IMG/VR virus record: IMGVR_UViG_3300030376_006779
Coordinates: 1 to 36,906 of that record
Source: a virus
Lineage: Duplodnaviria > Caudoviricetes
Direction: 5' to 3' (one strand)
Length of the DNA stretch: 36,906 nucleotides
Part shown: one piece after another, positions 17,401 to 36,906 of the stretch
How the letters are laid out: each line of letters opens with the position of its first letter
Position numbering within the stretch: position 1 is the stretch's first letter
Translations under genes and position numbers: made by a program
The notes under the pieces: generated by a model
Told to the model about the DNA's origin: nothing
What the model saw: only the letters and a program-made list of their open reading frames with translations
Database searches by the model: none

Positions 17401-19995
17401 AGGGCAACTATGGATGTCATAGCGACCGAAGAGGTCTCCCGGATGAAAGTCGCGGCATCGTACTTCGATTGGCAGAAAGCCGGTTCGAAGTTCAAATTTA
17501 AGGACGCGGACGGCAAGCTCAGTAATTATTCGTATGCACCCATGCAAGGGTTCGAGGGCGAGTTTCAATCCATAGTAGATACAGAGAAAGCTTGGGAGCT
17601 TCTCGGGCAAGGTACCAAATCTTCAGGTAAAGGTTTTGATCAGCCCAAGCAAGTGCTTCTGGCCAAAGGTGCTTTCGGTAGATACAAGGATGAGAACGGC
17701 AAGCCCATCAAACCACCCGATCCTACTCAGGTTCTGGGTACTTCCGAACAGCAGTATGTAGACGGGTCGATCCGGGGGAATAAGAACACCGTAGCTAATG
17801 CATACGGCAAGCTCCACGACATGATGCGCAGGGTAGCGTTTGGTAAGGAAGAGGACTACCCGACACCGGACTCATTTGAGGGGGTCGATCTGGACAAACT
17901 CCATAAGGATGAGAACATCCGCAAGAAAATGGAGGAAGAGTACCATTCAATTTTCAAGACACACGTCCAGACGGTGGATAAGATGGAATACAACTGGGAT
18001 GATGTCGATCCTTCAGGCCGATGGAAAATGGTTCAAAAGAGGATCAACACCAGCTTTGCCAATGACCCGCATGTATTTGTCTACCGCAAAGAGGGTACCC
18101 CGGTCTACCTATCCTTTCAGGAAACCGGAAAAGGTAAGATGATGGCGGCCGCGTTGAAAAACATGAGGTACGAGTCATTGCCCGAGATCCTGGGTCAAGT
18201 GAATGGCATCACGAAGCGCATGTCCCAAATGGCCACCTCTCGAAATCCTGGATTTATCATACCTAACTTCGTCCGCGACCTTGGTAGTGCTCTGATCCAC
18301 TTGACGGAAGATGACAAGAGGTCGCTCGTCAAGAACGCTCTTAACCTAAAGAATATCCACAAGTTCGGTAAGGCTGCATTCGAAGCGGAACTATCATTGA
18401 GGAAGGATAAGAAGAGCCCGGTCGACATCAAAGGATTCAAGGGTGGAGACCTGGCGATGGCTCAGAAAATTATGGAAGAGGGTGATGCTGTGAAGATGTA
18501 CATGTTCGCCAAGGCCAACGGAGCCATGGTCGGATATTTCAACACGAAGGGCGTGCCTGATATCATTAAGAGTATGCGGAAGGAAGCTGAAAACCCAAGC
18601 AAGGCTCCGAAACGCATGTGGGAGAAAACGGTTGCTTACATGGACGCCATGAATGCATACGCCGAACAATCCATACGTATCTCTTCTTTCTGGGCTGCGA
18701 TCAAGGACGGTCGCTCCACCCAAGAAGCCGCACTTATTTCACGACGGGTGACCGTAGACTTTAACCAAGGGGGTAACAAAGCCAACGCGATAAATGCTTT
18801 GTATATGTTCTTCAGAGCGAGCATCACGGGTATCAACCGTTCCTGGAATACGCTTAAGAAGCGCTCATGGAAGGAGAGGTTTATCCTGGTTGGCGGGATC
18901 ATGGGCACATCCTATGCATGGGCTATCGTTTCCAGACTTTTGGATGATGACGAGGACGAGGACACCGAGCCATTGTACGATCAAGTAAGCCCGTATGTCA
19001 GGCACAGGAAGATAGTTATCCCCGTACCTAGTTGGTTGCTTAAAGCCGTAGGTATGGAGGACGACGGTTTTCATATGACGATCAATTTACCCCTCGGTAT
19101 GCCGGCCAGTATTTGGGGCGCGGGGCAGCAGCTTGCGGATATGACTTCCTACTATACTCCTGGCATAAGGGGTGGTCATGGAATATTCGAGAGCGCTGGA
19201 AACTTTGCGACTTCCCTTCAGGACATGGGCAACCCGATGGGTGGTGTAGGTCTTACCGAGTTTGTTCCTTCTCCGATCAAGCCTTGGGTCGAAGTAATGG
19301 CCAATCAGGACTTTACGGGTAAGGAAATAGTTTACCCGAACACCCCGTGGGGGGATCCAAAACCCGCACACACACGCGACCCCAAACAAACTCCCGCTTT
19401 CTGGACGGGAGTCTCAAAACAGATCAACGAGTGGGGCGGGGGAACGGATGATTCCTACGGTTCCGTACGTGGTATGCTCGGCCAGAATCCTCTCGAATTC
19501 AGCGAGGAAGAAGATTGGAAGTGGGATTGGTCGGGTAACCAGATCAGGCACATAATATTCGGATACCTCATGGGTGTAGGGCAGACCGCAGAGGGGGCCA
19601 TCCTATCGGCAGCCGGTGGGGTTGACGATTTTGACTTTGCTCAAGTCCCCGTAGCTCAGAGATTTCTTAAAAGCAGTACCTACGGAGGCCGTACGCGATC
19701 CAAGGTAAACCATCTCAGAGACGCAGTATTCCAAGCTGAGAACGTGGTTGAAAACGCACCCGCCGAGGTTCGAGCTCAGGAAAGAAAACGTCAGAACAAA
19801 CTCCTCCAGTTCTTGCCCGACGTTAAGCAAATCGACCGAGTTAAGCAGAAGTATCGAGACCAAAAACAGAAGGTCCAGGACAGTAAAATGTCGGATGTCG
19901 AGAAAGCACATCGGATTGCGAACCTCGAGGCTAAAGAGTTAGAGTTAATGACCAAAGTTATCAACCGAGCACAAAAAGCCGGTCTAGCAATATAA
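2458..19995 (+). CDS. Giant (5845 aa) polyvalent internal virion/ejection protein with zincin-like peptidase, NADAR and LPD38-like domains
   Basis: Uninterrupted 17.5-kb ORF. Motifs HEGAH (5164), HEIFH (13894), HELIH (15421) and SVEAAYQAFK (12244). C-terminal NFVRD...VTVDFNQGG...YMFFRASITG...PWVEVMANQDFTGKEI is typical of LPD38-containing phage proteins. Confidence 0.85.
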   Translation: MSKLDELGLSDDYEEKKSGLGQFTSKPTQRQFQPFGGPLKPQQPQNQVSQVQNPFPAEQPQYVSPLDDLGTYDQYKTNYSAISKEASNYGQISSRWNSLYDDSLENEIRPFYDQLGLYDDIQDKASGDEYIASIDKEYARLNKLANSEDGWFGSSDEKLGAQEALKRFGSWGGENGLRSKFFKLKQERDNRKLMSDQANDTKVRMLEEMTSIPLDQRMAMDEALKSRGKGEKDPREINKILDSMQWEDPVVDFNTGEITNLHKVDPRRKSPTATDFNTGQNAGQAAQSKRRQQAFSGDIDTIMSERAGMERRRNMQNRGFMVGHSGTAPRGMSNDFIDILDADKLKDAGFTEFKGLPIEEAIAQLGGAEKIEAAKVMKSALQAKEIFRNSQLELLKEIGGANKNSDQLKLKVDKARQNWHGALKVAGDFGLSSRLYEQLSSAEDQVGFWEGIKNEWNRGLKQADMADLSLDFAMGQADESDIQTLIDISQDIEDIPTSSALKRISSGKSKNLMEAVGLIFGNAEALPELIAGVTSAYFPTMVNTFMKYTGPAALGHGAIQKMRGKGGLFGTIGLGARLNAGVASAALEYNGKLMEEMSGLGVDVHDPKIFMAAWQSPQIREALKDTALAKSFGVGLMDSVGGLMAGRIGQTTRYLGMKGGKHVDATRWAKKHGRSDWQQAGIDMPVFSSWQRFKSSIVPETGAQMGFGMGGEALGQYLAMKPGESFDWDAIAAEGALEIVSPFGIYGAMSEAWRGGKREAARKNFAQATPTYSNVQPMTIDGQQVGSQGTVTRAGLVQEFRQYDSADNAAADMIQAAGINFDPANPNSPENRQAQVIQDFMFRFQEMNPEKFKELRWVVAERTPDSIDSEGLFEHYDDPSFGGSTVFLNADKMKENPIRGLFHEGAHWARLSIFKDVKDLMSVYNSLTSEQKLNSFAEYHLKIPNAKFSALEDGQKSEVMRRFQDTSSRTQAEEWFALQFARNLAGNPSDRTVAQPVKKFMKKFVYPLMEGKMGSVDNAGAFAAQVDGVILNAMGWGPTGVRMGDTLQDQDWSADGVRGAALPEGMEQMSQEEGIKWLWEKIQKYDKKDQGPLIETIEALMGGNKIFMTPEVSAFTKSDDTPIGKKEAKKFADPEAKKWSKEKVDLLTELYEDVDGDVNRMLDAQVPGEKSEGKTEPRKSEDVGEALDTEAIDKIRKVPGSPSIEGDPAKPDTLSLTPSQQKNLNNVLKNEKEFDALKKYIKQLRKVNTPEAIAQIEKAKARIEALKIDPPAEKTWDQVSKFEESLLNDDGTPKEFQLGPNVVRFIPFRGKALTDGGGRVWIKAEINGVEVPFYQSTGLGQKILQTGKFYPSPGVGGTWVNKLSSKQMAEFYGSPEMAQVSAFLEQGFGDITPHEGKINLRFKESIPGYDNLTIKEQKRHAGQFVKEQRSWMNDGRTQVELDEKGAAASIRNEMARLAKLIEDGMPAPVERTAEKPLPGKPKSETTPTRTGAQVRVDEIRGQEEQVYTKDSFDPQKAATRKAVIESLKKIEELITDPKKFKKALVDARNKLVNQRLEALGIDSKGVSTEDWDNVVRQISWMDVLREMSEFDTLLSFGKGGRSQWGLDLIDRFTDSFDMPEIDAVEEAMAKGEADLGEAQDMIRQEKLAAMDEQQALEKSIKKVKKPFEKKSETRGNQKLVTSPLDPKKGYKEMVNLKKTNKPKKGMIQSKEKFQEWIKKNKGKATLKDWETASKNSLVKKKGNKLVYIPGEGFALLYKTTVQEKAKKEKAIPEGDKRAIHSGMIKAIQEQIRAEVGEGLEASEVEYFDRMDASENFTYVKQQARFFRERGHNENFMIEFFNAIMNSEGVVVKIGGKTYGKKGKRMRVHQFMNMLRDAQSLDQNQKKEIAALPTSYEKTDNFANAQKFNERVAKLLIPRRGKTKTAKNTGKKQKSAPTRDYTTYASQVKEWAKFAQVMREEVKSRQPDLVDEGKDQAFTDELSRRIAQTMRLPRAYMDFMQAEAKTRRQKALARHIELLQEAEMLFAPENYGVDWKNVRVMHGPFANTFIKEGGVLKPLTLGVLSTHSNKGWGGALKLFDKKGYPKKYKGKDGKQMEIADGQHLLGGVPFEGAKTDTVTFYDQFDLKKITPDLSTKSKDPNTYHGAYGMTPRQYKLYVAAAQASMHQPITGRGLNTNDLRRRVIVQGTPDEGTSLLTILAKMVWEANAESLDGSAETRKTRARMSTQMAYSPEDYLLAEVAKTASYTGAEMDQTGLTMMWLQHNKVRELTRLLSQLKDQTWKDRGALRAKQRDIEKLIQYHLHAEPYEKGRITETFRTVDIKPKSRAERRRLYQRYLDSFKGEKPLPFDSDSKKYRKFENQVTKEQERTGTMPDADKFRFRPPVVEEYKWTSWNEMYEYYRQEDIAFLKDKYAFEKARLGDSNKTGKFPSLTKWLNQKDKNGNYTNRVRVEGGFGDVQTNPGGREKPQPDRIPGGKMWTEALGQYDYWHWKMKAIDEILTQWEEEIGPLGGWHKKAGKAYTDAREALSQAHGEQADRLFVDDLLEKRFKQKTGNDSWKDNKAFSKFKEQHKNLYEGLTRQSKELNKLQRERRKVMHNPDLSDSQKESILDEFYTRITREQEKIRKVSVAKRKDIFQMYRDWYLEFIGKDANQELAETMLNTIERNFVEQTPQYGENGEVYYVPQFSWNVGNRTGFSRREDKYPRKFRNDGYAYVELDESLDNPDFKVEAQEGAHGEFKRVNLDKTYNILSLYKSQADKVFGQLKKTGEGLGAEFEIPDRVRDDAGRFAKWNATYKDREDLSATFMAQGAEDGEKISFKGVDADGVDVEIDAIFKNGFWEYEDGSGQLSVRPGTEVINVTRIDQDPETLAAQKDPELNIRKAIDRGEDRSPDSKAGTTAELYNRPSLHDQATEAWLAEQEKKGVDRQNAASSDSHYTAARLAEQIFKLGVRSFTHFADTEVTGDNKSTPGQQFAPYIIQRILHPLLERMYKDLNIDLDAKTGNSTEEFPQTYGDLLEKLDRLTKLKTQVDMDSAAVEPPMSEPKLLIVNDDKGEKGKSDLIREWFEQNGMDPGEAGRTYAMDERKTVEASEETLPDGTVKKSKERKENDQEIDVDNLTEAGISVIFKSSKDGSARFKNLVELAKDDSDRMTIVVDISDKDFDISKVVRGKGGILEQMGQGIEFEPGSIFIFADTEATTSDAKITAVLDYLFKGDLPPAKDTKSKAEGRKGKRAVDVNFGKGINPELSPLYDLAKPFEHEGRKFYSVEAAYQAFKNPQAVKDGEINPDDFAEQSDGPTLTGKEARTWANELGVKADTKISKELMRTLLRKRYDTDSEFKRRLGQIRGPITHSVKDEFWKEALPELLEELSTEAAKSAWFNDSNLWGDTDTAELSAWLSDIREAIEPIMTAAFNGRRVDQLDEKVEQSIMSRDSGAYQAEGDKSVFEQKEAADKGPSEPGEDVGDTESQESADGDATGTKVKDREDPPEGTFDPDYADKQAGQTGEPPSSDNNIQLDDIKQKNIRMGIAVRDILESLDEVTNWTEDEILGWAISNSYHLDDAMSVDKPGGFESVLPENSSKLTAEFEKLGAPPKAVDNPNFDLEIGQWVSKIAESDNNMLQLVWLMWKGFWGKAEGASFTKWRGDVQKQIDRLEAGDLDGPERMGKMGEDFQAGSQLPPMSEIPIFKKLREKPREFAVPLGQVIDSMVKRLEENLSVALYEKRLGMSERDPRLRGIYEVLTAFRTLYKSRKRKDGDESHGKVKFSMFDSAKRQAETGKVILGDVDVDSESGDYTMRLGDIHLDNSRDVASGYHTVIHEIFHVLTHRFSKLLTGVTEKNPGMARKIKLISKTDLLLAEDQKARGEKIQVAGVYNKYKSAFENIEKLHEFALEEYNRLAENPFGIGLKERLAYGFDGAGKDAQLVEFITEAGSNIEMQRFLDGIEITDAQAKSLGLEPTTGSKSTLWQAFVNVLKDFFGLKVDGTVLGEVLRESSTFLEDPEAKLREYTDALNGVDKFVNDRLIQNQKNQRLEQVWSDDVQLGSQLHIPPNQLESLAQGKVSSGNLVDEITDLQRYRSELQLLANLFGEEAVEDSMKNISTKEHRLLRSHWLQEFVNPDFFPEVFKLYGVDYASERLPIPWGNFGFAREGKITRDGKELNRENKKARRMLIDILQSGGVEIRDFLLAMRKDYKNRARLLRKALKPENMSKVRRIMAEHPDFRVANESMPARVKATIDTLYTSIRGELAYVGKLDQFLNSLYKLTDRAKFANTKVRFVNLTSPIRKDQNWGAMVRPQIIRDFGDHGHKEKVGGMRMYMGHGAAPHAFIHELIHVLAESHIGVGTTKKFRDRAVSLFEEDNLGETVEDPYADLMKFPEYKADKVIGEIRKVLDKEHARLPDGILKNKTAYGSVTNNEEVVTEALSNPVFQKWLKSIKTPKHIADLVKDAKTGWTPSNLWEAFVIAFKKLLGLKIDGTLMEATLDMSGIIIDASQKPEILQNDRPFSFIEGIARKHTIKRSKARTKALQPLVGESPNIEMSEVAEALDSLDAMENDGQFGSQLGDSRKGNTPKGKGFRPKHTEWSKKEFLPNRYALKDKDSLWDMFVAELSWVAGVDTDPYDTEGLLKELGANPELVDFTDKTPEGYDPADDAPAEKLPANALNELLKKIFWPSVHPKLNLLFNASNETVLKEMALGLDGFLEYHDLRKQDINWGEVRKYMRQTPVDPAERMDDRAARKTIRAGDPGPYDIQLGSQLVDDGADNHRKAGFFATMFNKDNWKELYQETKRGSTQAWGQGSKKDIFIIDYVDKFHPLKKMFYEVKDIVGPMMEKGTPLYDALNTWGKVHTYLGLGQSELEQHQIKYHHPMMNAIREAGTTVEVVGEYLLARMAPSRNHHHTLQIKDALKDVKNIKDKKKREARRKELNERLKNKALSGIPDDAAIDVVKKLEAGQAVGNLTKEQAQAFVRFMDHENSPLQLFYEQQLEDLTNRATMDVIATEEVSRMKVAASYFDWQKAGSKFKFKDADGKLSNYSYAPMQGFEGEFQSIVDTEKAWELLGQGTKSSGKGFDQPKQVLLAKGAFGRYKDENGKPIKPPDPTQVLGTSEQQYVDGSIRGNKNTVANAYGKLHDMMRRVAFGKEEDYPTPDSFEGVDLDKLHKDENIRKKMEEEYHSIFKTHVQTVDKMEYNWDDVDPSGRWKMVQKRINTSFANDPHVFVYRKEGTPVYLSFQETGKGKMMAAALKNMRYESLPEILGQVNGITKRMSQMATSRNPGFIIPNFVRDLGSALIHLTEDDKRSLVKNALNLKNIHKFGKAAFEAELSLRKDKKSPVDIKGFKGGDLAMAQKIMEEGDAVKMYMFAKANGAMVGYFNTKGVPDIIKSMRKEAENPSKAPKRMWEKTVAYMDAMNAYAEQSIRISSFWAAIKDGRSTQEAALISRRVTVDFNQGGNKANAINALYMFFRASITGINRSWNTLKKRSWKERFILVGGIMGTSYAWAIVSRLLDDDEDEDTEPLYDQVSPYVRHRKIVIPVPSWLLKAVGMEDDGFHMTINLPLGMPASIWGAGQQLADMTSYYTPGIRGGHGIFESAGNFATSLQDMGNPMGGVGLTEFVPSPIKPWVEVMANQDFTGKEIVYPNTPWGDPKPAHTRDPKQTPAFWTGVSKQINEWGGGTDDSYGSVRGMLGQNPLEFSEEEDWKWDWSGNQIRHIIFGYLMGVGQTAEGAILSAAGGVDDFDFAQVPVAQRFLKSSTYGGRTRSKVNHLRDAVFQAENVVENAPAEVRAQERKRQNKLLQFLPDVKQIDRVKQKYRDQKQKVQDSKMSDVEKAHRIANLEAKELELMTKVINRAQKAGLAI
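5050..5480 (+). other. Zincin-like metallopeptidase (MPTase-type) domain 1 in the giant protein
   Basis: EGLF...TVFLN...GLFHEGAHW (HExxH at 5164-5178) with downstream AEEWFA at 5371. Boundaries approximate. Confidence 0.75.
12151..12560 (+). other. NADAR (YbiA-like) domain in the giant protein
   Basis: ELSPLY...PFEHEGRKFYSVEAAYQAFK...MRTLLRKRY...ITHSVKDEFW...LPELLEEL follows the NADAR motif order. Boundaries approximate. Confidence 0.8.
13453..16701 (+). repeat. Four dispersed copies of peptide motif D-x-Q-x-G-S-Q-L
   Basis: DFQAGSQL 13453-13476, DVQLGSQL 14554-14577, DGQFGSQL 16096-16119, DIQLGSQL 16678-16701. Confidence 0.9.
13477..16095 (+). other. Two tandem paralogous zincin-like metallopeptidase modules in the giant protein
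   Basis: IHEIFHVL...EFITEAGSN...LWQAFVNVLKDFFGLKVDGTVL versus IHELIHVL...EVVTEALSN...LWEAFVIAFKKLLGLKIDGTLM. Confidence 0.8.
18230..19995 (+). other. LPD38-like C-terminal region of the giant protein
   Basis: NPGFIIPNFVRD, EQSIRISSF, VTVDFNQGG, INLPLG, PWVEVMANQDFTGKEI, QIRHIIFGYLMGVG and VPVAQRF motifs. Includes a hydrophobic segment (FILVGGIMGTSYAWAIV). Confidence 0.7.
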
Positions 19996-22010
19996 TGAAA
20001 GAAACCAACTTACGCCTGACCAAGGAGCAGGAAGACAAGCTCGTTAAATACACACTGGAGCGCGTTGAACAGCTGCGAGAGGATAACAGGGAGCGCATCG
20101 AGGCGGACAAGCTTTCGTGGAAGATGTACCATAACGATCGTGACGATCGGGTTAGTTACGACAGTATATTCGGGCACTCCAATCTTTCCGTTCCTCTGAC
20201 CTCACTTGTGGTCGATCACTTCATGGCCAGGGCCGAGGACGAGATCACCGGCACCAGCCCGTACTTCAAATTCGAAGCTCAAGGGGCTCAAGATCAGGAG
20301 ATGGCGGAAGCTTTCGACAAATACTTTAATTGGAAGATCGAGGATGAGGCGGGAACGAGAGAACGGCTCGAGGAGTCCTATCTACACCTGTTCATCCAAA
20401 GAGCTTTGATTCTCAAGTCCACCTACAAGGAAGACATCTCGACTTGGTACGATCACGAGAGAAACGGTTTGTTCAATAACGAGACTCAGGAATTCGAACA
20501 GATCCCCGGACAAGGACCGATACTCGAGGGTGAGGCTGAATTTATCCCCGAACTTAACCCAATGACCGGAGAGTCGGAGCTTAGACTTGCACAAGACCCC
20601 ACGATCCAAATGATTCCGGGCATTCACGAATTCCAACCGCTTCCGGAGGGTATCCCAACTCAACAGATAAGGTACAAAGGTCCAATGTCGGAGGTCGTGG
20701 ATTCCGACAGATTCATGTGCCCGACCAGCGCCGAGTCCGTTGACGATGCCGACTTTATCGTAGAGCTATACGACAAGGATCTGCGTTGGGCGATGGGTAT
20801 GTTCCTTGAACGCGAGTGGCTCACATTCGGAGATTTTTACAACCACATCAAAAAAGACGCCAACCCTCGAAGCCCTATCGAAAAAAACGATAACTCCGAG
20901 AACCTGGACTTTGATTCCGACGAGAACCCAAGCATTCAGATTATGGAATGTTGGATAAAGCGTGATGTACTTGGAACCGGAGAGCCTCAGGAATTTTGCA
21001 TATTTATAGATCCCGAGACCGAGAAGCCGATTTACTACGAATACGTAGCCAAGCTCACGCCTGATAACAAAGTCCCTTACTCCGTGGTTTCGATCGGTAG
21101 GGAGAGAAACAAGTGGTGTGGCCTCAGTTTGCCCGAGCGTATCAAGAGTTTTCAGGAATATGTAGACAAGCAGTTCAACGCTCAGAGCTATCGGAACGAG
21201 TTGGCTGCCAACCCCGTCGTAGGTTTCAATCCACAGGCCGTCGAGGATGAGCCTGAGGACGTAGAGCTACACGCCGGTAAAATATTCGAGCTCAAGGACC
21301 AATACGGCATAGATGATTTTTTACAATTTTCTGCTATCCCTAATGTGGACATCAAGACCCAAGAGCTGATCGATTTTGTGTTTGGGATCGTTCAGCTCTG
21401 GCTTGGTGTCTCCAATATGGCCCAGGGTGATTATCAAGCACTCGCTCCCGCCAACACGGCGACAGGGGTCGAGGCAACTCTTAGGGAAGCCTCCAAGATC
21501 GGCCGCCGTTGGATGCGTAGGATCGTGAGAGGTTTTGAAGAGCATTTGACCAAACTCGTTCAAGTTTCCATGGCGACCATGGATGAGGAGGAAGTGTTCG
21601 AGTACATGGAGGGTGATATCAGAGCCTTCGGCGTAATGACCCCGGAAGCTATTGAGGAGGTCGGGATCAACGTAAAAGTAATTTTGTCGCAAGACCAAGG
21701 TCAAAGGGCGATAGAGAAAGCCAACCTCGCCTTGCAGACTCAAGAAAGATATTTCCAATCGCCGCCCGAGATGCGTCCGTTCATGAGGCCTATGCTCAAG
21801 AGAATTCTAGATGCCATGGGCTTTGAGAAGACGGATGAGCTAATCCCTCGGGAAGCACCACCCGACCCTAAAACGGAAGCAGAGATAGCAAAAATGCTTG
21901 GTGACAACGCGGCTCAGGGGCAAAGCCCCGCCCCAACCGATGGCGTAGCCGCGGCTACTTCTGGTATGGGTAATAGTAACCCACAAGGACAAAACCAATA
22001 TCAAGCTTAA
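19995..22010 (+). CDS. Portal protein (671 aa)
   Basis: Size and motif order fit podovirus-type portals (IMECWIK, VPYSVVS, GLSLPERIKSFQE, LGVSNMAQG, NTATGVEATLREAS, low-complexity Q/G/A tail). Its start overlaps the stop of the giant gene (TAATG). Confidence 0.85.
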   Translation: MKETNLRLTKEQEDKLVKYTLERVEQLREDNRERIEADKLSWKMYHNDRDDRVSYDSIFGHSNLSVPLTSLVVDHFMARAEDEITGTSPYFKFEAQGAQDQEMAEAFDKYFNWKIEDEAGTRERLEESYLHLFIQRALILKSTYKEDISTWYDHERNGLFNNETQEFEQIPGQGPILEGEAEFIPELNPMTGESELRLAQDPTIQMIPGIHEFQPLPEGIPTQQIRYKGPMSEVVDSDRFMCPTSAESVDDADFIVELYDKDLRWAMGMFLEREWLTFGDFYNHIKKDANPRSPIEKNDNSENLDFDSDENPSIQIMECWIKRDVLGTGEPQEFCIFIDPETEKPIYYEYVAKLTPDNKVPYSVVSIGRERNKWCGLSLPERIKSFQEYVDKQFNAQSYRNELAANPVVGFNPQAVEDEPEDVELHAGKIFELKDQYGIDDFLQFSAIPNVDIKTQELIDFVFGIVQLWLGVSNMAQGDYQALAPANTATGVEATLREASKIGRRWMRRIVRGFEEHLTKLVQVSMATMDEEEVFEYMEGDIRAFGVMTPEAIEEVGINVKVILSQDQGQRAIEKANLALQTQERYFQSPPEMRPFMRPMLKRILDAMGFEKTDELIPREAPPDPKTEAEIAKMLGDNAAQGQSPAPTDGVAAATSGMGNSNPQGQNQYQA

Positions 22011-23157: not shown

Positions 23158-23442
23158 ATGGCTACTGTAAACTTATCATGGACAACTCCCTCGTCTGTTT
23201 CGGATGTGGATAACATAGAAGTCTGGCGTTGGGCTGGGCTTTCAGCTACCACTACCTCCGATCTTGAGACGCTCATAACCGCTGCGGCTACAACCCCTCT
23301 GGCTACGCTGTCGGACTCTACCGTTACCTATTCGGACACGACTGCTCCCGCAGCTTCTGACTTAACGTACGCAGCTGTTTCCAGAAATACCGCAGGCTAT
23401 AAGCTTGAGGGTACTGGGCATGCGAACGTGACCACTACATAA
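23158..23442 (+). CDS. Stand-alone fibronectin type III-like domain protein lacking the first (A) beta-strand (94 aa)
   Basis: TVNLSWTTP (strand B with conserved W), NIEVWR (C), VTYSDTT (E), LTYAAVSRNTAG (F), ANVTTT (G). The protein begins directly at strand B. Confidence 0.72.
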   Translation: MATVNLSWTTPSSVSDVDNIEVWRWAGLSATTTSDLETLITAAATTPLATLSDSTVTYSDTTAPAASDLTYAAVSRNTAGYKLEGTGHANVTTT

Positions 23443-23443
23443 A

Positions 23444-23797
23444 ATGCCTCGATGGGGGGACATTGCTGACACCACAGAACACGTTGACCTACATCCAGGC
23501 AGCGTGGATTTGGTTGGTCGGCCTTCACCCCACACTTTAAGCGGGCGCCCTTCACCGTACGACAGACCTTTTGGGGGTATAGAACCCAGATATCGGTGGA
23601 GTGATGACGCCGACGGCACACACAGGGGGGCTGCCCAACCTCCCGCAGCAGTAGGTTTCAACATCGACATTCGAGTCCTTGAAGCAACGATCTTGGCGAG
23701 AACTGGAGACCCGACAGGGACAATAGCTTTCGCAACGGATACCCATGACTTGTACGTCTATGACGGGGCGGCTTGGCAAATTTACAACGACACTTAA
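23444..23797 (+). CDS. Putative fibre adaptor protein (117 aa)
   Basis: C-terminal GTIAFATDTHDLYVYDGAAW motif, of the kind found in phage fibre shafts and junctions. Confidence 0.55.
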   Translation: MPRWGDIADTTEHVDLHPGSVDLVGRPSPHTLSGRPSPYDRPFGGIEPRYRWSDDADGTHRGAAQPPAAVGFNIDIRVLEATILARTGDPTGTIAFATDTHDLYVYDGAAWQIYNDT

Positions 23798-27502: not shown

Positions 27503-29011
27503 ATGGCTACTAAATCACAAGCGGGTGGCTTTCCGGCTTCTCCCGGACCACTCGATTCTACCGCAGCAGGCAACGCTAACGTTGACCTGATCAAACCACG
27601 CATATCTTCTTATGCCGATCTTCTTAACGGAGACGCTAATTCCGACTTGCGCTCAAGACTTTGGTCTGAGCTCGTCACTCGTGACGCTCGGGAAAAAAAC
27701 GTGTTCGCAAAGTTCATCGGAGGCGAAGGTAGCGGCAAACCTATTACCGAAAAGCGCGATCTCAGCGCCGGCGGTTCCGACAAAGTAACCTTCACCACAG
27801 TCGCTCCCATCCGTGGGCAAGGCGTACGTGGGGAAGAGGTTCTGAAGAACAGCACCGACAACCTCGACTTCGGGACATTCTCCGTTGAAGTTGACCTCGT
27901 TCGTCACGCTGTTTCCTGGACGCAAGTCCTTAAGCTCATGCGCTTCACCGGCAAGACCATCGATCAGCTCTCAGCTGAGGTCATGTCCGAATGGATGGGT
28001 CGCACAGAGCAGGACCAGCTTCAGTACGCACTTCGTCAGATCTGCTTGAAGAACGCTACCGGAAGCAACTACATCAGCGGCTACGGTACTGACTCAACTG
28101 GAGCACTTAAGTATGTTGACGGTCTCAGCACCGACATCATCCAAGAGGCTAAGCAAGCACTGATCGCCAACGGCGGTGAGCCAATCAACACTGGCGGAGA
28201 CGTCAATCAGGACATCCCTGGTTACCTGTTCTTCGCTCCTGATGCTGTTCTTCGTCCTCTGCGTTCCGACCCTGACTACCTCGAGGCTATCCTCCAGGCT
28301 GACAGTCGTTCCGACAGTAACAAGCTCTACACTGGTTCGTATGCCAAGTGGGATAACAATGTAATCGCTAACCACAACGTTCTCATCGACACAGCTCGTG
28401 GGCGCCAAGGTTCTCCATTGTTGCCTACGTTCTACGCATTCGACGCAATTGCTGACGCTGCAAGTTCTGGAATCGGCGGAACCGACGGTGACTACGTTGC
28501 CAACTTCCGCGGTGCATTCATCAACATCCCAGGTGGTGGTGGTGTTGCAATGGGTCAAAACGACGACGGAACCTACTACATCCTCGGTATCGACACCAAC
28601 GGTGAGGTTGCTCTCTACAGCTACGCTCAATCCGACATCGCAAATAGCTTCGGAACCATCGCACTTACTCGTGTGTCTGGTGACGGAGGATTGACCGGAA
28701 ACGTCAAAACCGGAGACGCCTTCTCGGCCGGTGCTATGTTCGTTCAAGCCAACGCTTTGGGTACGCCAATCGGCTACGCTCTTGCAATGGGTAAGGACGC
28801 AATGTACTTCGCCAAGGGTAAAATCTACGGTGAAAGCATCTACCACTATGACGATTTCGCGAACTCCGGCAACGAAGCTCACTTGAGCGCTGTTGGTGTT
28901 CAGTCCGTCTACGGAATGGGTGCTCGTCACGACACCAGAGGCCGCGTTCCTGCGGTTCAGTTGGTCGAGTGCGTTCGCCAAGTTCCAGGATTGTCGCTTA
29001 CGCAAGCGTAA
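27503..29011 (+). CDS. Major capsid protein, DUF4043/N4-like HK97 fold (502 aa)
   Basis: GSDKVTFTTVAPIRGQGVRGEEVLKNSTDNLDFGTFSVEVDLVRHAV resembles the DUF4043 capsid E-loop. Strongly biased C/T-ending codons; follows the scaffold and precedes a terminator. Confidence 0.88.
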   Translation: MATKSQAGGFPASPGPLDSTAAGNANVDLIKPRISSYADLLNGDANSDLRSRLWSELVTRDAREKNVFAKFIGGEGSGKPITEKRDLSAGGSDKVTFTTVAPIRGQGVRGEEVLKNSTDNLDFGTFSVEVDLVRHAVSWTQVLKLMRFTGKTIDQLSAEVMSEWMGRTEQDQLQYALRQICLKNATGSNYISGYGTDSTGALKYVDGLSTDIIQEAKQALIANGGEPINTGGDVNQDIPGYLFFAPDAVLRPLRSDPDYLEAILQADSRSDSNKLYTGSYAKWDNNVIANHNVLIDTARGRQGSPLLPTFYAFDAIADAASSGIGGTDGDYVANFRGAFINIPGGGGVAMGQNDDGTYYILGIDTNGEVALYSYAQSDIANSFGTIALTRVSGDGGLTGNVKTGDAFSAGAMFVQANALGTPIGYALAMGKDAMYFAKGKIYGESIYHYDDFANSGNEAHLSAVGVQSVYGMGARHDTRGRVPAVQLVECVRQVPGLSLTQA

Positions 29012-29409: not shown

Positions 29410-30162
29410 ATGGCCTCCATTTCTTATCTCTCGCTTAAAAATCAACTGGCCTCGATGTTGGGGGCGGACGAAGTGTCCGATCTTCCTCAAATTGATCAGG
29501 ACAGAGTAGGTATTTTTATCAATCAAGCCTATCGGGAGTGCTACACTCCTCTTGACGGCAAACGACCTATGTGGGCCCAAAAAGGGTTCACGTTGGACTT
29601 CGTAAAAGACCAGGTATCAGCCGATCTATCGGCGGATGTTACATCCGTTGATAAGATCCCGGTGCTTGTCGGCGAAGGCCCACTATCACCTATGTCCGGG
29701 CCCGAAGATGAGATTCGAGCTCGCACCATATTTGCATGGGATTTCAAATCTCCTCAAGGTCGGGGTTTGAACTTCCCGAAATATAAAGAGAATGAGCCGG
29801 AGAAAGGGCGCCCAGTTTGGTACTATTTGGATAATCGAAATTCCGGGACTGATAACAAGGTCATCCCTAGACTGTTTCTTTACCCAATACCTGAAAAAGC
29901 ATACCAGGTTGAGTTGTTCGCTAACATAGTCCCCACCGATCTGGAGTTGGATACCGACGAGCCTCGTATGCCTTCTGACTTAGTGTGGGACATACTTTTC
30001 CCAATTGCTCAAGGTAAGATGCTTTCCGACCCCCGCTACAACGGGGATAATAAAGAGTTCATCGCCCGTATGGCTGAGGAAGCCCGTAAAAGGCTTAGAA
30101 CTCTAGTATCACCGCAGAAGCACAAAGGTTCTCTAAGACTCACAAAACGCGGAGGCTGGTAA
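29410..30162 (+). CDS. Head-tail adaptor / tail tubular protein A-like (250 aa)
   Basis: FINQAYRE...GRPVWYY...LFLYPIPEKAYQVEL...LELDTDEPRMP pattern typical of podovirus adaptor proteins; position after the capsid. Confidence 0.78.
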   Translation: MASISYLSLKNQLASMLGADEVSDLPQIDQDRVGIFINQAYRECYTPLDGKRPMWAQKGFTLDFVKDQVSADLSADVTSVDKIPVLVGEGPLSPMSGPEDEIRARTIFAWDFKSPQGRGLNFPKYKENEPEKGRPVWYYLDNRNSGTDNKVIPRLFLYPIPEKAYQVELFANIVPTDLELDTDEPRMPSDLVWDILFPIAQGKMLSDPRYNGDNKEFIARMAEEARKRLRTLVSPQKHKGSLRLTKRGGW

Positions 30163-31607: not shown

Positions 31608-32584
31608 TGGACGAGGAGGAGGAGTTAGAGGAGCTTGAAGATAAGCTCGATGAGCTGAAGCGGAAGGTTGAGGAAATCGAGTCTCAAGTCACGACCAATA
31701 CCGAGGCTACCGAAGAGAGGCCCTACCAGCAAATCGTTTCTTCTGACAGACCCTTCGTTCTACATTGGGTATCCGGGCAATTTGGAGGAGTGGACTCCGT
31801 AGCAAAGGCAAAATGGGCTTTTGCGAATGCGATTAAGGATAAGAAGAATTCAAGCAAACCCGTACAGCACGGAGATATGATGATCCTTGATACGGACTGT
31901 CCTTGGTACGGGCTGCTTGTCGAGCAAGGGGAGATTTACCAATCGGTTGGATACGAGGGCGAAGACCCTATAGGCATAGTAGTTTGGAACGGATGCTCCG
32001 AGCTTACCGATTGCGCATGCGACGACACTATAGAGGAGTTAATATCCGGAGGGATTGACGAGAGCAGTCCAGACACATCCTGGAAAGTGTCCCTGGGCAC
32101 TTGCGTATGGTTCAACCAACTCATGAGCGTGTCGATATACTCGCACACTTCAGCTGGAACGGTTCTTTTGACAAAGACCCGAGCATTCACGCTAAACAAA
32201 TGCGGGGCGGTAGTAGATGTCGGTAGGGAAGTCGAGGACTCCCTTCTCATACCATGCGAATGTGGGGAGGATCCTCCCACAGGTAATTACGATGATTGCT
32301 CGGAGTTCGCAACAATGCCGAACTCCATAACCTTAGAGGAGACGGATAGTCAGGGCACTGTTACGACCACGACTCTATACAAATACACGATATCGTCGAC
32401 TTTCTGCCGGTTTACCACGGATAGCACTGGCGGATCAGCTGGGGGTGGAGTCAATGATTACTCCGTACGATTTCTCTCCGGATTATGGAAGGTCTATAAA
32501 ACGGGAACTGCATACGCAACCCACCACTTATTTTTTGGGAACTATACAACCATAAACGGAACTAGTACGTGGAAAGTGTTATGA
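31607..32584 (+). CDS. Putative tail fibre/spike-like protein with N-terminal coiled coil and Cys-rich middle (325 aa)
   Basis: LEELEDKLDELKRKVEEIESQV coiled coil; several Cys pairs (DCACDD, PCECG); T/G/Y-rich C-terminal domain. Confidence 0.5.
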   Translation: MDEEEELEELEDKLDELKRKVEEIESQVTTNTEATEERPYQQIVSSDRPFVLHWVSGQFGGVDSVAKAKWAFANAIKDKKNSSKPVQHGDMMILDTDCPWYGLLVEQGEIYQSVGYEGEDPIGIVVWNGCSELTDCACDDTIEELISGGIDESSPDTSWKVSLGTCVWFNQLMSVSIYSHTSAGTVLLTKTRAFTLNKCGAVVDVGREVEDSLLIPCECGEDPPTGNYDDCSEFATMPNSITLEETDSQGTVTTTTLYKYTISSTFCRFTTDSTGGSAGGGVNDYSVRFLSGLWKVYKTGTAYATHHLFFGNYTTINGTSTWKVL

Positions 32585-32739
32585 CCGACGAAAAGAAAGA
32601 ACCCTCAAAAGGCCTGGGCGATACGGTCAAGAAGATCACGGACAAGCTAAAAATACCCCAATGCGGAGCCTGTAAGAAAAGACAGGCAAAACTCAATCGG
32701 TTGTTTCCTTACGAACCTAAGGATAATAATAAGAAGTGA
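32581..32739 (+). CDS. Small basic CxxC protein (52 aa), absent from the ORF track
   Basis: Hand translation: MTDEKKEPSKGLGDTVKKITDKLKIPQCGACKKRQAKLNRLFPYEPKDNNKK*. ATGA and GTGA overlaps on both sides. Confidence 0.8.
   Translation: MTDEKKEPSKGLGDTVKKITDKLKIPQCGACKKRQAKLNRLFPYEPKDNNKK
32693..32735 (+). promoter_or_regulatory. Possible degenerate fourth copy of the late promoter
   Basis: TCAATCGGTT (8/10 match) lies exactly 43 nt before the GTG at 32736, with TAATAA at the -10 position. It is inside a coding region, so it may be coincidental. Confidence 0.35.
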
Positions 32740-34892
32740 GATTTTTTCGCATACCGGCCTTTACGGGCATAGAAACCCACCGGGACGATATGGATCGGGG
32801 GAGCTTGCGCACGGTCGAAGGTTGTGTACCGCACGGCCCGGGAGGATTAAGATCCGGACCGGTCTGGTCTAAGATTGGGGATGTCAGCCAGTTCTCCGCG
32901 ATTGCTGAAAATCATGTGTCGGCCGCAGATGACGGCAAAGGGAATTCGCTCTTTTTCGTTAGTCGAGAGTCGGAAGTCCATGACCTGCTTGTAACGTCCA
33001 CGGAGAACACCGCTCTTGTATCACTTGGTGCAAGCTACGGTGTGATAAATAACTCTGTTTTCGACCAAGGGGACGCATCGTTAACCCCAGTAGGTAATCG
33101 CTTGTACGCCTTAGGCGATGGGAGTGAGGAGGCAGTTGTCACGATTGGCGAAGGCCCTCCGCACATCACCCACAGTGTGACTCCAGATCAGACTCTTTAC
33201 AGTCAGGAGTGGTCAAGGTTTCCGAACTGTCAATTTTATGTCGCCGGACCAAAGAAAACTATCTTTGCAGCAGGTAATCCTGCCGACCCGCTAGTCGTTT
33301 ATATTTCCGAACCCGCTGGTGTTACACAGCCCGTGCGAGACAATCCATACTCAACCTACGAAACGGGACACTACGAAGGTGTGTTGAGCGAGGTTCGAAT
33401 CTTGGGGAGTAACGCCTCAAAAATTACTGCTTTGAGCACCCGGCAGGACCGGGTAGTCGTTCACACCGATAAAGGATGCCATATTCTATATGCCCCATCT
33501 CCCGATCAGGCTAGTACGGGATACCGTACAGAACAGGTGTCGGCCACGAACACCTCGGCCGCAGTTAACTCTCAAACCGTTGCAGGAGACGGGGGGACGC
33601 AACCTTTTTGGTTGGGTCACGACGGACAAATTTATAAGGACGAGGCAGCTGTGCGCGGAGCCGAAGACTTTAAATCGTATGCCGATCCTCAACAGGCAAG
33701 TTGGAAAGCGAAGGGCAAATGGGAGAAGGAACACCCCGCTAATCTGGAGAATTCATTCGCTACATATGATCCCCAATCTGGAATGTATTGGGTATTTGTA
33801 GAAAGCTCGGAGAGTCCCGTAAATACGAGAAAGCCCACGGAGGGTCCGACCAGCCTTTCCGGAATTGTCAAGCCCGTCAACGGCCCAACAGGTTTGGGAG
33901 CGATTACCGCGCCTACTGATGGACCAACAGGGCTGGTAACTCAGGAGATTGTTACACCTACCAGTGGACCAACAGGGCTGGTAACTCAGGAGATTGTTGC
34001 ACCTACCAGTGGGCCGACAGGGTTGTCGGCAACTCAGTATATTGTTGCACCTGCTAATGGGCCGACAGGGTTGTCAGCAACTCAGCAGGTCGTTGCACCA
34101 ACCAGCGGACCTACAGGGTTATCGGCAACTCAGCAAGCATCCGCACCTGCTAGCGGACCTACGGTACTAACCGCGACCGCCATGCCGTTTCCGCATTTGC
34201 ACTATCTTATCCCGGGAACGCCGAGTTACGCTGGGGACAAGATGTACGCTACTGGGCTGACGTACAACCCGACTCTAAGCACTTATCATATCAATAATTT
34301 CGGGTACCAGAGCTTTACTAACGTAGCTACCCCGACGCAAACATCCGAACTAGCAGCAACAGCAAACACGGGGAGTACGTGTAATGTTGAGATGAGCATG
34401 TATTTCCCAGGAGGTGGGTTGAGGCACTTCCTTCGTAGCAATTCAACGTGCAGTTTTTATCAGCATTGGATCGAGATGACATACGCTGGTCTTCTGGATC
34501 TGGATGTGTTTATCGCTACTACTGCTACGGGAGCGACAGGTAACTGGAATGCGGGTTTTGGATCCCCAGCTTGGCATTACCAAGAAGTTGATGCCTCTAC
34601 AGGCGGAGTGTGGGATGTGTGGGTGGCCGCTGGAAACACAACTGGGGTATACAACGTTGTCAAGAGACTCGGTTCGAACTCAGCCCCGTTCTTCTGGACG
34701 ATGGCAAACGCTAGTGCCGGGTCGCCAATGGGCATACCTTCCGTAGGTGCCCCCGCATACTTGCCCAACCCATTAGGCAGTGGTCAACGCTTAGAGATGT
34801 TCATCAGTTCTGGTGCTGGTACTCACAACTATGCAACTAGTGAAAACAGGTACTTTGACCACAATAACACTACCCACCTTCTTCCAGTATGA
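32736..34892 (+). CDS. Putative tail nozzle (tubular protein B-like) N-terminal part, repeat array and C-terminal accessory domain (718 aa)
   Basis: Nozzle-like start (AFTGIET...GGLRSGP) and beta-propeller-like strands (VVYISEP, KITALSTRQDRVVVHT, PFWLGHDGQIY, FATYDPQSGMYWVFV). Then 8 PxxGPT repeats and a T/G/Y/W-rich domain. Confidence 0.65.
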   Translation: MRFFRIPAFTGIETHRDDMDRGSLRTVEGCVPHGPGGLRSGPVWSKIGDVSQFSAIAENHVSAADDGKGNSLFFVSRESEVHDLLVTSTENTALVSLGASYGVINNSVFDQGDASLTPVGNRLYALGDGSEEAVVTIGEGPPHITHSVTPDQTLYSQEWSRFPNCQFYVAGPKKTIFAAGNPADPLVVYISEPAGVTQPVRDNPYSTYETGHYEGVLSEVRILGSNASKITALSTRQDRVVVHTDKGCHILYAPSPDQASTGYRTEQVSATNTSAAVNSQTVAGDGGTQPFWLGHDGQIYKDEAAVRGAEDFKSYADPQQASWKAKGKWEKEHPANLENSFATYDPQSGMYWVFVESSESPVNTRKPTEGPTSLSGIVKPVNGPTGLGAITAPTDGPTGLVTQEIVTPTSGPTGLVTQEIVAPTSGPTGLSATQYIVAPANGPTGLSATQQVVAPTSGPTGLSATQQASAPASGPTVLTATAMPFPHLHYLIPGTPSYAGDKMYATGLTYNPTLSTYHINNFGYQSFTNVATPTQTSELAATANTGSTCNVEMSMYFPGGGLRHFLRSNSTCSFYQHWIEMTYAGLLDLDVFIATTATGATGNWNAGFGSPAWHYQEVDASTGGVWDVWVAAGNTTGVYNVVKRLGSNSAPFFWTMANASAGSPMGIPSVGAPAYLPNPLGSGQRLEMFISSGAGTHNYATSENRYFDHNNTTHLLPV
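33834..34181 (+). repeat. Eight tandem PxxGPTxLxx peptide repeats (13-16 aa unit)
   Basis: PTEGPTSLSG, PVNGPTGLGA, PTDGPTGLVT, PTSGPTGLVT, PTSGPTGLSA, PANGPTGLSA, PTSGPTGLSA, PASGPTVLTA. The 45-nt units at 33920-33964 and 33965-34009 differ by one base. Confidence 0.95.
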
Positions 34893-36906
34893 GCTTTTGC
34901 GAGACGATAAATATTACTAAAACGGATTCCTCAGCGGATATCTGCGAGGGAAACTATACATTCGACGCAGTTGCCAGAGAGTATGTTCATACAACGGATT
35001 CAAATTGCAGACTGAGTAAGTACATAGACTTCGCATCAGGTGAGTATAAATGGCGGGCATACCATTGGGTTCCTTCCGATCAGCCACAACCAGCGGGGAG
35101 CACGCTAAGCGCGCAATTTACAATGCCTCCCACAATAGTTTGTGCTACTACAAAATATCACCAAACGGCGGTTACCGAAGTGCCTAGTGATATCCTAACT
35201 GATCATAATGCTCATTTCTTACAAGAGGACGGAGATCTAAACGGATGCCCCGAGATGAGTACGTTCCCAGGCAGACCGAATATGTCCATGTCAGGAATGT
35301 CTAATGACGTGAGCGGTTTGTGGGAAAGTGGGAAAGGCGTATTCGCCGACCACGACCCCCTTGATGGGACGAGTTATGTCGAGGATGCAAGGCAAGTAGG
35401 CGTGCCTAGAGATAGGTGGGTATTAAATGGTGTAAATTGCGATGATCCATTTCGGGGAGATCCTGCCCCACAGGACGCAGATGTTACTAGATGGATCGCG
35501 AAGTACAATACGAGAACTTCTAAATACTGGGGTGACGAGCCGTCTGGTAGTACGACACCTGCATGGAGTATCGAACATGAGTGGACAAGGGATCAGAGCG
35601 GTAACGTCACAGGACAAACTTGGAATAAATCCGCTAACTTTAGTAACGATGTTGGCAGAGTGGATCAGTGCTTGATCAACGTCTATGTTATCGATCCTAC
35701 GCAAGGTATAGTGAACGACTCGGGGGCTACCAGTGGTGGTAAGATAATACCTTACCGAGAAGCTACGATAAACGACGGGACGTTTGGGCAGTCACAATAT
35801 GCAGGGTGGGTAGGCGGTATTCTGTGGCAATGGAATGAGACTACTCAAAGGATGGAAATAGAGGAAAGACCCTCTACTGCTCAAAACTACCCGATCTTCA
35901 GAGCAGGTGCTGGTGCCAACAATGACGAGCACGACATTTTAATATTAAACTCGAACGGGCAGAAAACAGCTATCTCAGATAACATCTGCTTTCTACATCA
36001 GAACTATTACGGAGCGAATGTTAATTATGATGATTATATCGCATATAACAACGCTACCTGGTCAGGTGTAGGTAGTGCAGCAGCTAGAACAGGTTTTGAG
36101 AAACATTGGTTGGGTGCAACGTTTTCATTCTTTGAGGATGCTGACTCCCTGACTCCTGAGTATATGGAGATCAAAATGATCACCCAGGACTCAGACTACG
36201 TAGACTGGATAAGTAATGGGAGCCAAGGTGCCTGTGCAAGCATGGGCTGGTACAGATCTGTAGGGATTGAAACAACTTCAGATATATCAGAAATGTGCCC
36301 AACTGATGCGGATTGGACGCAGACGGGAATAAGTGTAGCGGAAGCTTCCGAACCGTCCGTTGGACCAACCGCTCTTAATGCAACGACTCAGCCCGCTTCA
36401 GGACCGACAAATCTCAGTGCCGCGCAAGACGGGTCGGGGTCGGGCGGAGGATCTGGCGGAGGATCTGGCGGAGGATCTGGCGGAGGCGGAGGTACCGTAG
36501 CCCCAGCAGTAGGACCTACCGCTCTTACAGCGACGCAAGCACCTACAACTTTTACAGGAAACACGCTATCCTCAAAGTATCTCGGTTATGTAATCGACGA
36601 GCGCACAAGCTCGCTGTCCGGCCCATTCGATCATGAGTCAATCACAGCGGTTGCAACCCGGGACAATTCCGCAGAGATGTATGCTGTGACCGAGGACAAG
36701 AGTGTCAAGAAGACCGACCTGTTAGATTTTAACGAAGCAGTATTTCCAAAAGTCTCCGATCCATTCGGGAGCATCACCGTCCCATTTGACACGACTACTG
36801 AAAAAGGTGTTGTCTGCTCGAAGACCGGTGAGGGGTTTCTATACCGTGGACGTTATATGTCCGCGCCATTTGAGGAACCTGTTGACGGGCCGGGTACGGT
36901 CGAAGA
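34889..36906 (+). CDS. 3'-truncated tail protein (>672 aa), absent from the ORF track: Cys/Trp-rich N-terminal domain, repeats, probable C-terminal part of the nozzle
   Basis: ATGA overlap with the previous gene. Hand translation (MSFCETINITKTDSSADICEG...) shows no stop up to the window end. KYLGYVIDERTSSLSGPF...ITAVATRDNSAEMYAVT begins at 36575. Confidence 0.8.
   Translation, partial: MSFCETINITKTDSSADICEGNYTFDAVAREYVHTTDSNCRLSKYIDFASGEYKWRAYHWVPSDQPQPAGSTLSAQFTMPPTIVCATTKYHQTAVTEVPSDILTDHNAHFLQEDGDLNGCPEMSTFPGRPNMSMSGMSNDVSGLWESGKGVFADHDPLDGTSYVEDARQVGVPRDRWVLNGVNCDDPFRGDPAPQDADVTRWIAKYNTRTSKYWGDEPSGSTTPAWSIEHEWTRDQSGNVTGQTWNKSANFSNDVGRVDQCLINVYVIDPTQGIVNDSGATSGGKIIPYREATINDGTFGQSQYAGWVGGILWQWNETTQRMEIEERPSTAQNYPIFRAGAGANNDEHDILILNSNGQKTAISDNICFLHQNYYGANVNYDDYIAYNNATWSGVGSAAARTGFEKHWLGATFSFFEDADSLTPEYMEIKMITQDSDYVDWISNGSQGACASMGWYRSVGIETTSDISEMCPTDADWTQTGISVAEASEPSVGPTALNATTQPASGPTNLSAAQDGSGSGGGSGGGSGGGSGGGGGTVAPAVGPTALTATQAPTTFTGNTLSSKYLGYVIDERTSSLSGPFDHESITAVATRDNSAEMYAVTEDKSVKKTDLLDFNEAVFPKVSDPFGSITVPFDTTTEKGVVCSKTGEGFLYRGRYMSAPFEEPVDGPGTVE
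36353..36541 (+). repeat. Three PxxGPTxLxA repeats and a (GGGS)3 linker
   Basis: PSVGPTALNA, PASGPTNLSA and PAVGPTALTA; GGCGGAGGATCT repeated three times at 36443-36478. Confidence 0.92.

Follow-up and report, generated by a model that had tools for sequence, protein, structure and literature searches.

How can a tail nozzle that relatives make as one chain be encoded by two genes, and what becomes of the two chain ends that such a cut sets free? The question is raised by the last two genes of a 36,906-nucleotide stretch of DNA from a marine virus of the Caudoviricetes (IMG/VR record IMGVR_UViG_3300030376_006779), which is referred to here as the window. The two genes are called A and B (coordinates of all features in Table 1), and the end of gene A overlaps the beginning of gene B by the four letters ATGA. 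Gene A encodes a conserved core, a tract of short repeats that we call a rope, and a terminal domain X, and gene B encodes the mirror order, a domain Y, a rope and a second core. Taking all evidence together, we consider it likely that A and B are a split predicted nozzle whose halves reassemble non-covalently, and that the repeats are donor strands for small fibronectin type III (FN3) domains, which are called beads below.

One protein in relatives, two genes in the window

In relatives, as profile searches show, the A and B cores belong to a single chain, of which A is the N-terminal and B the C-terminal part. A B-core profile had 38 matches among proteins of 400-2000 amino acids (aa), four of which (P0037-P0040; P and L numbers are our handles for proteins and loci) carry the whole A core as well, joined to the B core through a short helix and loop; the other 34 do not. 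The full search with an A-core profile gave 125 matches. Among 130 stored A-core proteins, B-core sequence was present in the same chain in 53 and absent from 63, with 14 being fragments; the one-chain proteins are mostly 577-632 aa long and some are cut short. A sequence-only reading of the window, which took A and B for a nozzle gene split within a propeller loop, had named unsplit relatives as something to look for, and they exist in number. The B core also occurs as a free gene of 220-228 aa (L005, L008 and L014). Judging from relatives that are 71-75% identical, the window would hold 115 of the about 228 aa of this core, and the remainder would be beyond the end of the contig. Of 44 aligned unsplit proteins, 39 have a junction of 7-25 residues, counted between fixed anchor columns; in the other five, which are the nearest ones, it is 28 residues long. 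One unsplit protein, P0164, accommodates an NHL propeller of about 245 aa (residues ~363-609) in the loop that is the site of the family's split, and is a possible intermediate between the unsplit and the split state. Inserts were also seen in P0141 and P0151, located further downstream than that of P0164.

The AlphaFold2 model of the unsplit P0037, built with 59 alignment rows, reached a predicted local distance difference test score (pLDDT) of 88.6 and a predicted template modelling score (pTM) of 0.89, and shows a platform sandwich and beta-propeller fold over the whole chain. In a Foldseek search of the PDB with this model, all ranks through 32 were phage tail entries, led by Pa223, VP1, A4, P22 gp10, Pan3, Sf6 gp8 and SU10. 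VIA likewise placed Pa223 first (Z 21.2, root-mean-square deviation (rmsd) 3.5, 435 aligned residues), followed by SU10 (19.3), crAss (19.1) and P22 (18.1). By fold, A and B together are predicted to be a podophage tail nozzle, an assignment drawn from the model of a homologue that shares about 55% identity with the A core, and one that bears out the identity proposed from sequence.

According to the fold model and the searches, the gene A core comprises the N-terminal strands, most of the beta-propeller and the tip of the nozzle. Its last strand has the pattern YDPxxGxYWVFV, and the core finishes directly after it, with FATYDPQSGMYWVFV encoded at 33756-33800. The gene B core, in which the motif KYLGY starts at 36575, is the C-terminal nozzle half with five propeller strands, followed in relatives by a C-terminal beta-sandwich. 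In the P0037 model the last strand of A (337-343) leads through a helix and a loop to strands 365-371, 376-381, 386-391, 397-402 and 406-411, and the C-terminal sandwich lies at 477-577. The model supports a break within one propeller hairpin, between consecutive strands, as the sequence-only reading had supposed. Generic propellers (VIA Z about 17) align with model residues ~39-414, that is across the break, and therefore gene A alone leaves the propeller open instead of forming a complete fold; the C-terminal part of gene B in turn shares the nozzle similarity. From the unsplit model and the solved A1002 nozzle (discussed below) we infer that the two halves, which a single propeller hairpin would join in an unsplit nozzle, come together non-covalently. 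Very probably, the first two strands of B would finish the blade left open by A, the next three would close the propeller, and the C-terminal sandwich of B would pair with the N-terminus of A, as it does in the A1002 structure.

The stop codon between A and B

The assembly consists of a single contig whose end cuts gene B, a situation that invites the suspicion that the stop at 34890-34892 arose through faulty assembly or marks a recent pseudogene lesion. Assembled contigs from elsewhere speak to this: a 2504-nucleotide contig (33969-36472) in runs X1-X3 and a 1554-nucleotide contig (34418-35971) in run X4 cross the stop, both without insertion or deletion and with the stop unchanged. The evidence is made up of contigs of four runs in four studies, not of raw reads; the depths of X2 and X3 are near-identical, so that these two perhaps represent a single data set, and the window itself may stem from one of the runs. 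Seven of the 16 listed runs hold at least half of the words, six of them labelled marine metagenome and one given as a coded organism. Because contigs of four runs cross it unchanged, the stop is not an assembly error, which the sequence-only reading had named as a danger to its case. With the split moreover common to 45 loci, we give a lesion practically no weight.

The ATGA overlap, which recurs in L015, could suggest that a single chain nevertheless results from A and B, through frameshifting, readthrough or protein splicing. However, other loci separate A and B by up to about 2.8 kb, with whole genes sitting in between, B has a start of its own in relatives, and neither A nor B matches an intein family in Pfam. 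Production as one chain is therefore very improbable.

Repeats and the FN3 protein

The GPTxL motifs, eight in A and three in B, are unevenly shared between the halves, and their counts were equalled in none of 10,000 shuffles of either protein, with maxima of two for A and one for B. In the gene B rope the Gly-Ser tandem occupies 36443-36486. The repeat consensus, P-x-x-G/A-P-T-N-L-x-A, resembles the pattern of the first strand (strand A) of FN3 domains, and in 25 aligned rows the invariant Pro and Leu stand in strand-A spacing. A repeat profile was built from 195 repeat units, all from A tails. On P0210, the one natural FN3 protein that served as a control, it scored best on the segment before strand B (12.8 bits, next site 5.1), a likeness to strand A by sequence only. 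Among the plus-strand open reading frames (ORFs) of the window it matched only the 11 repeats, and it was found in none of the 53 unsplit nozzles, in 26 of 61 long A tails and in 19 of 34 long B heads. A profile of repeat pairs retrieved nothing meaningful from the PDB.

A candidate partner for these strands is a small FN3 protein of about 90 aa; 28 of the 45 split loci have its gene between A and B. The window encodes an FN3-type protein that is up to 42% identical to these small genes of relatives. Pfam fn3 is matched by 24 of 29 members of the family, the match of the L001 copy beginning at profile position 15 of 84. Alignments of the family profile with single solved FN3 domains start at about residue 19-23 of the latter, and aligned members begin with M-A-x-I/V-x-L-x-W, i.e. 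at strand B, the Trp of which stands at residue 8 in 45 of 46 database matches. Locus L029 encodes an FN3 protein that carries one repeat as its own N-terminus, and its AlphaFold2 model confirmed the FN3 fold from residue 18. At the level of the family, profiles and model agree with an FN3 fold without strand A. Such strand-A-less FN3 domains also head larger proteins of 414-1051 aa (L079:1392-2645, L097:1177-2421, L048:13544-15745 and L050:5576-8731), and cargo fused to FN3 may clip onto the ropes just as bare beads would.

It is fairly likely, judging from these patterns, that each PxxGPTxLxA repeat fills the strand-A groove of one copy of the 94-aa FN3 protein, giving ropes of up to eight (A) and three (B) beads per subunit that end in X and Y. 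Several observations weigh against the reading of A and B as a split nozzle with bead-bearing ropes. For A, B and the unsplit homologues, sequence searches in PHROG, Pfam and the PDB gave no family. The FN3 copy of the window has no Pfam match of its own and is encoded 9 kb away from the nozzle genes. No repeat-profile match was obtained in 35 of the 61 long A tails, some of which have variant repeats. The A tails of loci L027 (10001-13297), L068 and L103 have 16-23 regular repeats, yet the fetched DNA of these loci contains no FN3 gene; conversely, L048 has FN3 genes but lacks the repeat in A. The L029 model leaves the N-terminal repeat undocked, with no strand at residues 1-17, and most of its structural matches begin at residue 16-18, although nearly all other rows of the alignment have no repeat segment, which possibly biases the model.

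The undocked repeat, the repeat-rich loci with no FN3 gene nearby and the position of the FN3 gene of the window in a cassette after the portal would also suit a different arrangement, in which the nozzle is indeed split, the repeats serve as flexible Pro/Thr stalks and FN3 attaches to some other site, such as the capsid or another fibre. The sequence-only reading had likewise seen the repeats as plain stalks. We regard this as unlikely, though not negligible, since the strand-A spacing of the Pro and Leu and the P0210 score, an FN3 family that almost always begins at strand B, the FN3 genes between the halves and the confinement of the repeat to the two ropes among the plus-strand ORFs of the window all argue against it. 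We prefer to see the repeats as likely strands on which a separate FN3 protein docks, and not as mere stalks.

Exchangeable end domains

What hangs at the end of the ropes varies from relative to relative. Domain X is 63% identical to its homologue in L015, 46% to that in P0046 and, over part of its length, 43% to that in L004; in the Atlas its leading match is a PLL-like (lectin) propeller at 0.85, under the bar of 0.9, and X is possibly an adhesin. Sequence searches in PHROG, Pfam and the PDB named no family for X or Y. Domain Y, which also had no match in the Atlas, has full-length relatives in P0004 (71% identical), L015 (39%), L004 and P0003 (both 36%), and its first 75-125 aa are common to further relatives. 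Different domains at the same site, another feature that had been suggested as worth looking for, were readily found: P0042, the core of which is 88% identical to that of the window, has an RCC1-like domain in place of X, and L005, with a core 75% identical, carries no cargo at all. Other relatives bear PKD, Ig-like, TSP3, LamG or FGE-like domains. It appears somewhat probable that both X and Y serve as adhesins for the host surface and that recombination at the repeats exchanges them. The GC content is no clear marker of cargo (0.47 for Y, 0.51-0.52 for the cores).

Two further observations concern the tails. A 117-aa ORF beside the FN3 gene (23444-23797) shares its last 49 aa, at 59% identity, with the C-terminus of the A tail of P0081, so that modules move between the FN3-gene cassette and the nozzle tails. 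The A tails of L029, L041 and L063 form a subgroup in which a single repeat precedes long Cys-rich repeats.

Distribution and origin of the split

Four locus scans yielded the loci L001-L103, with 71 distinct A cores including that of the window, four of them unsplit. Among the 54 loci with a complete A gene, 45 are split and have a B gene, seven have no B in the fetched DNA and two are unsplit; many of the 45 are near relatives and hence not independent events. Searches with P0037 as query found no relative among cultured phages, and none was found among GTDB contigs. The mirror arrangement of the window, with an addition on each half, to which the sequence-only reading had pointed, is one of four layouts and not the rule: at a cut-off of 100 aa and with the window included, both halves are extended in 14 of the 45 split loci, only A in 25, only B in three and neither in three. 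A long A tail is thus present in 39 of them, and bare halves occur, as in L005 (381 and 228 aa) and L044. In L024 (1544-2623), L058 (9968-11038) and L087 (1431-2516) gene A stops at the end of its core and long repeat-bearing or extended proteins come next, the whole addition of L087 being on B, which has 813 aa.

A quick tree built from 94 A cores places all 50 A-only rows in one branch (Shimodaira-Hasegawa-like approximate likelihood ratio support 99), together with five unsplit proteins, while 39 unsplit rows lie outside it. Both trees were quick searches on the A core with midpoint rooting; rows with a core end outside residues 300-450 and rows that looked cut were excluded, and a database protein counted as split when its chain had no B core, without a check of the locus. 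The first tree suggested a re-fusion of P0037-P0040 and P0082. It is unproven, since with 42 hand-picked rows a single clade of all split proteins was not rejected (approximately unbiased test, p 0.457). The data fit one split from an unsplit ancestor, with a later re-fusion or a second split being possible.

Gene neighbourhood

Genes A and B follow the portal, the capsid and a probable adaptor, as is expected of a podophage nozzle in the structural module. The role of adaptor is assigned from size and position together with a weak PHROG match. Upstream of the portal, a protein of 5845 aa (2458-19995) contains an LPD38 domain near its C-terminus, matches three unnamed PHROG families and is possibly an ejected polyvalent protein. 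An ORF of 52 aa with a CxxC motif (32581-32739), read by eye, overlaps the stop of the gene preceding A as well as the start of A; small proteins resembling it are encoded between A and B in L029, L041 and L063.

Table 1. Positions in the window of the two nozzle genes, their parts and the genes considered with them.
Feature	Position	Strand	Remarks
Gene A	32736-34892	+	718 aa, GTG start
Gene A core	32736-33812	+	359 aa; conserved in 13 aligned rows; corresponds to residues 1-346 of unsplit P0037
Gene A rope	33834-34181	+	8 copies of PxxGPTxLxA, 13-16 aa spacing
Domain X	34176-34892	+	about 238 aa; C-terminal cargo of gene A; homologues in L015, P0046, L004
Gene B	34889-36906	+	672 aa in view; cut by contig end
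Domain Y	34889-36343	+	about 485 aa; N-terminal cargo of gene B; absent from many relatives
Gene B rope	36353-36538	+	3 copies of the gene A repeat around a Gly-Ser linker
Gene B core	36560-36906	+	cut by contig end; corresponds to residues ~361-581 of unsplit P0037
FN3-type protein	23158-23442	+	94 aa; predicted to start at strand B, without strand A; likely bead
Portal (upstream context)	19995-22010	+	PHROG 1216 / Pfam SU10_portal
Major capsid protein (upstream context)	27503-29011	+	PHROG 334
Probable adaptor (upstream context)	29410-30162	+	PHROG 10775 at E 7e-4

Comparison with known nozzles and rope-and-bead systems

Among open papers we found none on this nozzle family or on FN3 beads on a nozzle. 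The predicted full-length fold is that of Pa223 (9nwi), SU10 (7z4b), the crAss001 muzzle (7qol), VP1 (8zkk) and P22 gp10 (8eap), with Z 18-21 and rmsd 3.5-4.4, and the position in a podophage-type structural module is alike as well; T7 gp12 (7ey7) is a further single-chain podophage nozzle. Nozzles of the Pa223, SU10, P22 and T7 type, however, are one chain, whereas here there are two, and the break bears ropes and cargo.

The closest design is that of the Pseudomonas podophage A1002 (Kochitakasuvirus). The nozzle of A1002 (PDB 26FB) is reported to be split into a base, gp42, and a rope protein, gp39, with fibre dimers of gp40/gp41 (PMC13730344). As described there, gp42 lacks two strands in one blade and three in the blade after it, gp39 supplies these together with the platform, its 300-Å rope carries 11 fibre dimers bound by sheet augmentation, and the authors name both ends at the break 'fiber-dock' (PMC13730344). 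Because of that name, we infer that the break described here is probably at the usual fibre-dock insertion site. In our comparisons KPP25 ORF008, ORF007, ORF006 and ORF005 (398, 171, 147 and 620 aa), which match in length, stood in for the A1002 proteins. Both nozzles are in two genes, and in both the platform and two plus three strands of the propeller come from the C-terminal protein (in our case as predicted from the model). Genes for beads are located between the halves, an end domain caps the rope, and the beads sit on an unfolded rope by sheet augmentation (again a prediction in our case). The five strands at 365-411 of the P0037 model would be the counterpart of the two plus three of A1002, the register having been compared with KPP25 by eye and not by superposition.

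The similar register, the gene order of KPP25 (base, bead, bead, rope) and the five unsplit proteins that stand among split ones in the first tree could mean that the split was inherited from an ancestor shared with the split nozzles of A1002 and KPP25 (PHROG Hc3), the unsplit relatives then being re-fusions. We hold this to be distinctly improbable. No significant sequence link was found, with hhalign giving a probability of 0.6% to the KPP25 base and 0.3% to the rope, and 25.7% over 49 columns for the base when profile was compared to profile. Moreover, 39 diverse unsplit proteins lie outside the split group (in a tree rooted at its midpoint and without KPP25), and the beads are unrelated: the FN3 profile gave 0.1% and 0.0% with the two KPP25 beads, and the repeat motif is absent from all four KPP25 proteins. 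It is thus quite probable that the split arose inside this family, separately from A1002.

The two designs also differ in construction. The likely beads here are FN3 domains of about 90 aa without strand A, those of the A1002 type dimers of 147-171-aa proteins; a clear sequence repeat makes up the rope, which is found mostly on the N-terminal half, and on both halves in the window, whereas the rope of A1002 is on the C-terminal half; and, unlike in A1002, end domains are freely swapped and close unsplit relatives exist. The design works like the split nozzle of A1002 but stands outside that family, because two defining features of the latter are absent: none of the 59 rows matches any PHROG, including PHROG 8040 of the Hc3 base, and instead of beads of the gp40/gp41 type (PHROG 8123/3758) on a rope of the C-terminal half only, the ropes are mostly on A.

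Relatives of the KPP25 base (396-442 aa) were noticed in L105, L106 and L107, which are 8P, MetMV and a Manatee Spring isolate, and in L108 (Rollin). In the first three a gp41-type bead gene (PHROG 8123) follows the base relative; these genes of about 200 aa had been considered as bare C-terminal halves after Hc3, which was wrong. The A1002 design may reach well beyond Kochitakasuvirus.

If the split and its independent origin hold true, evolution has opened this one loop of podophage nozzles on more than one occasion. The family would then keep the stages side by side, from a tight hairpin over a longer loop, an in-frame insert and a bare split to ropes on one or both ends, and would offer a test case for the way in which a virion gains new attachment points by gene fission, a matter on which the A1002 paper only speculates. 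It would also explain why such nozzles stay unannotated, and it predicts a small coupling of peptide and domain that is testable with one 94-aa protein and one peptide. A bolder version, to which we give slightly less than even chances, is that a large clade of marine podophages opened the fibre-dock loop independently of A1002 and turned both ends into plug-in arrays of strand A for FN3 beads, bare or fused to adhesins, with rope length (0 to 23 sites), tips and beads as free modules and with one lineage that may have re-fused. Were this true, the loop would be a repeated hot spot of gene fission, and the phage tail would display a natural minimal tag-and-catcher system.

Donor-strand complementation is well known from chaperone-usher pili, in which a terminal segment enters another domain, with one joint per chain. 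In the hairpin joint of BppU and BppA of phage Tuc2009 a short terminal segment of one protein likewise binds tightly into another domain; this is also one joint per chain, in contrast to the predicted array of single strands on the nozzle here, and the accessible text does not mention fibronectin (PMC4742702). Closer in architecture are the rope-and-bead fibres of GP4 and the collar-whisker of Bas63, in which an extended chain carries, and completes, a string of incomplete beta-sandwich copies (PMC12609058). There, however, the rope is a separate protein or an extension of the collar, and the beads are dimers that the accessible text does not describe as FN3 (PMC12609058). Compared with these systems, what is new here is the likely independent origin of the split, the unsplit and insert-bearing relatives, the ropes on either or both ends of the break and the likely use of FN3 domains as beads.

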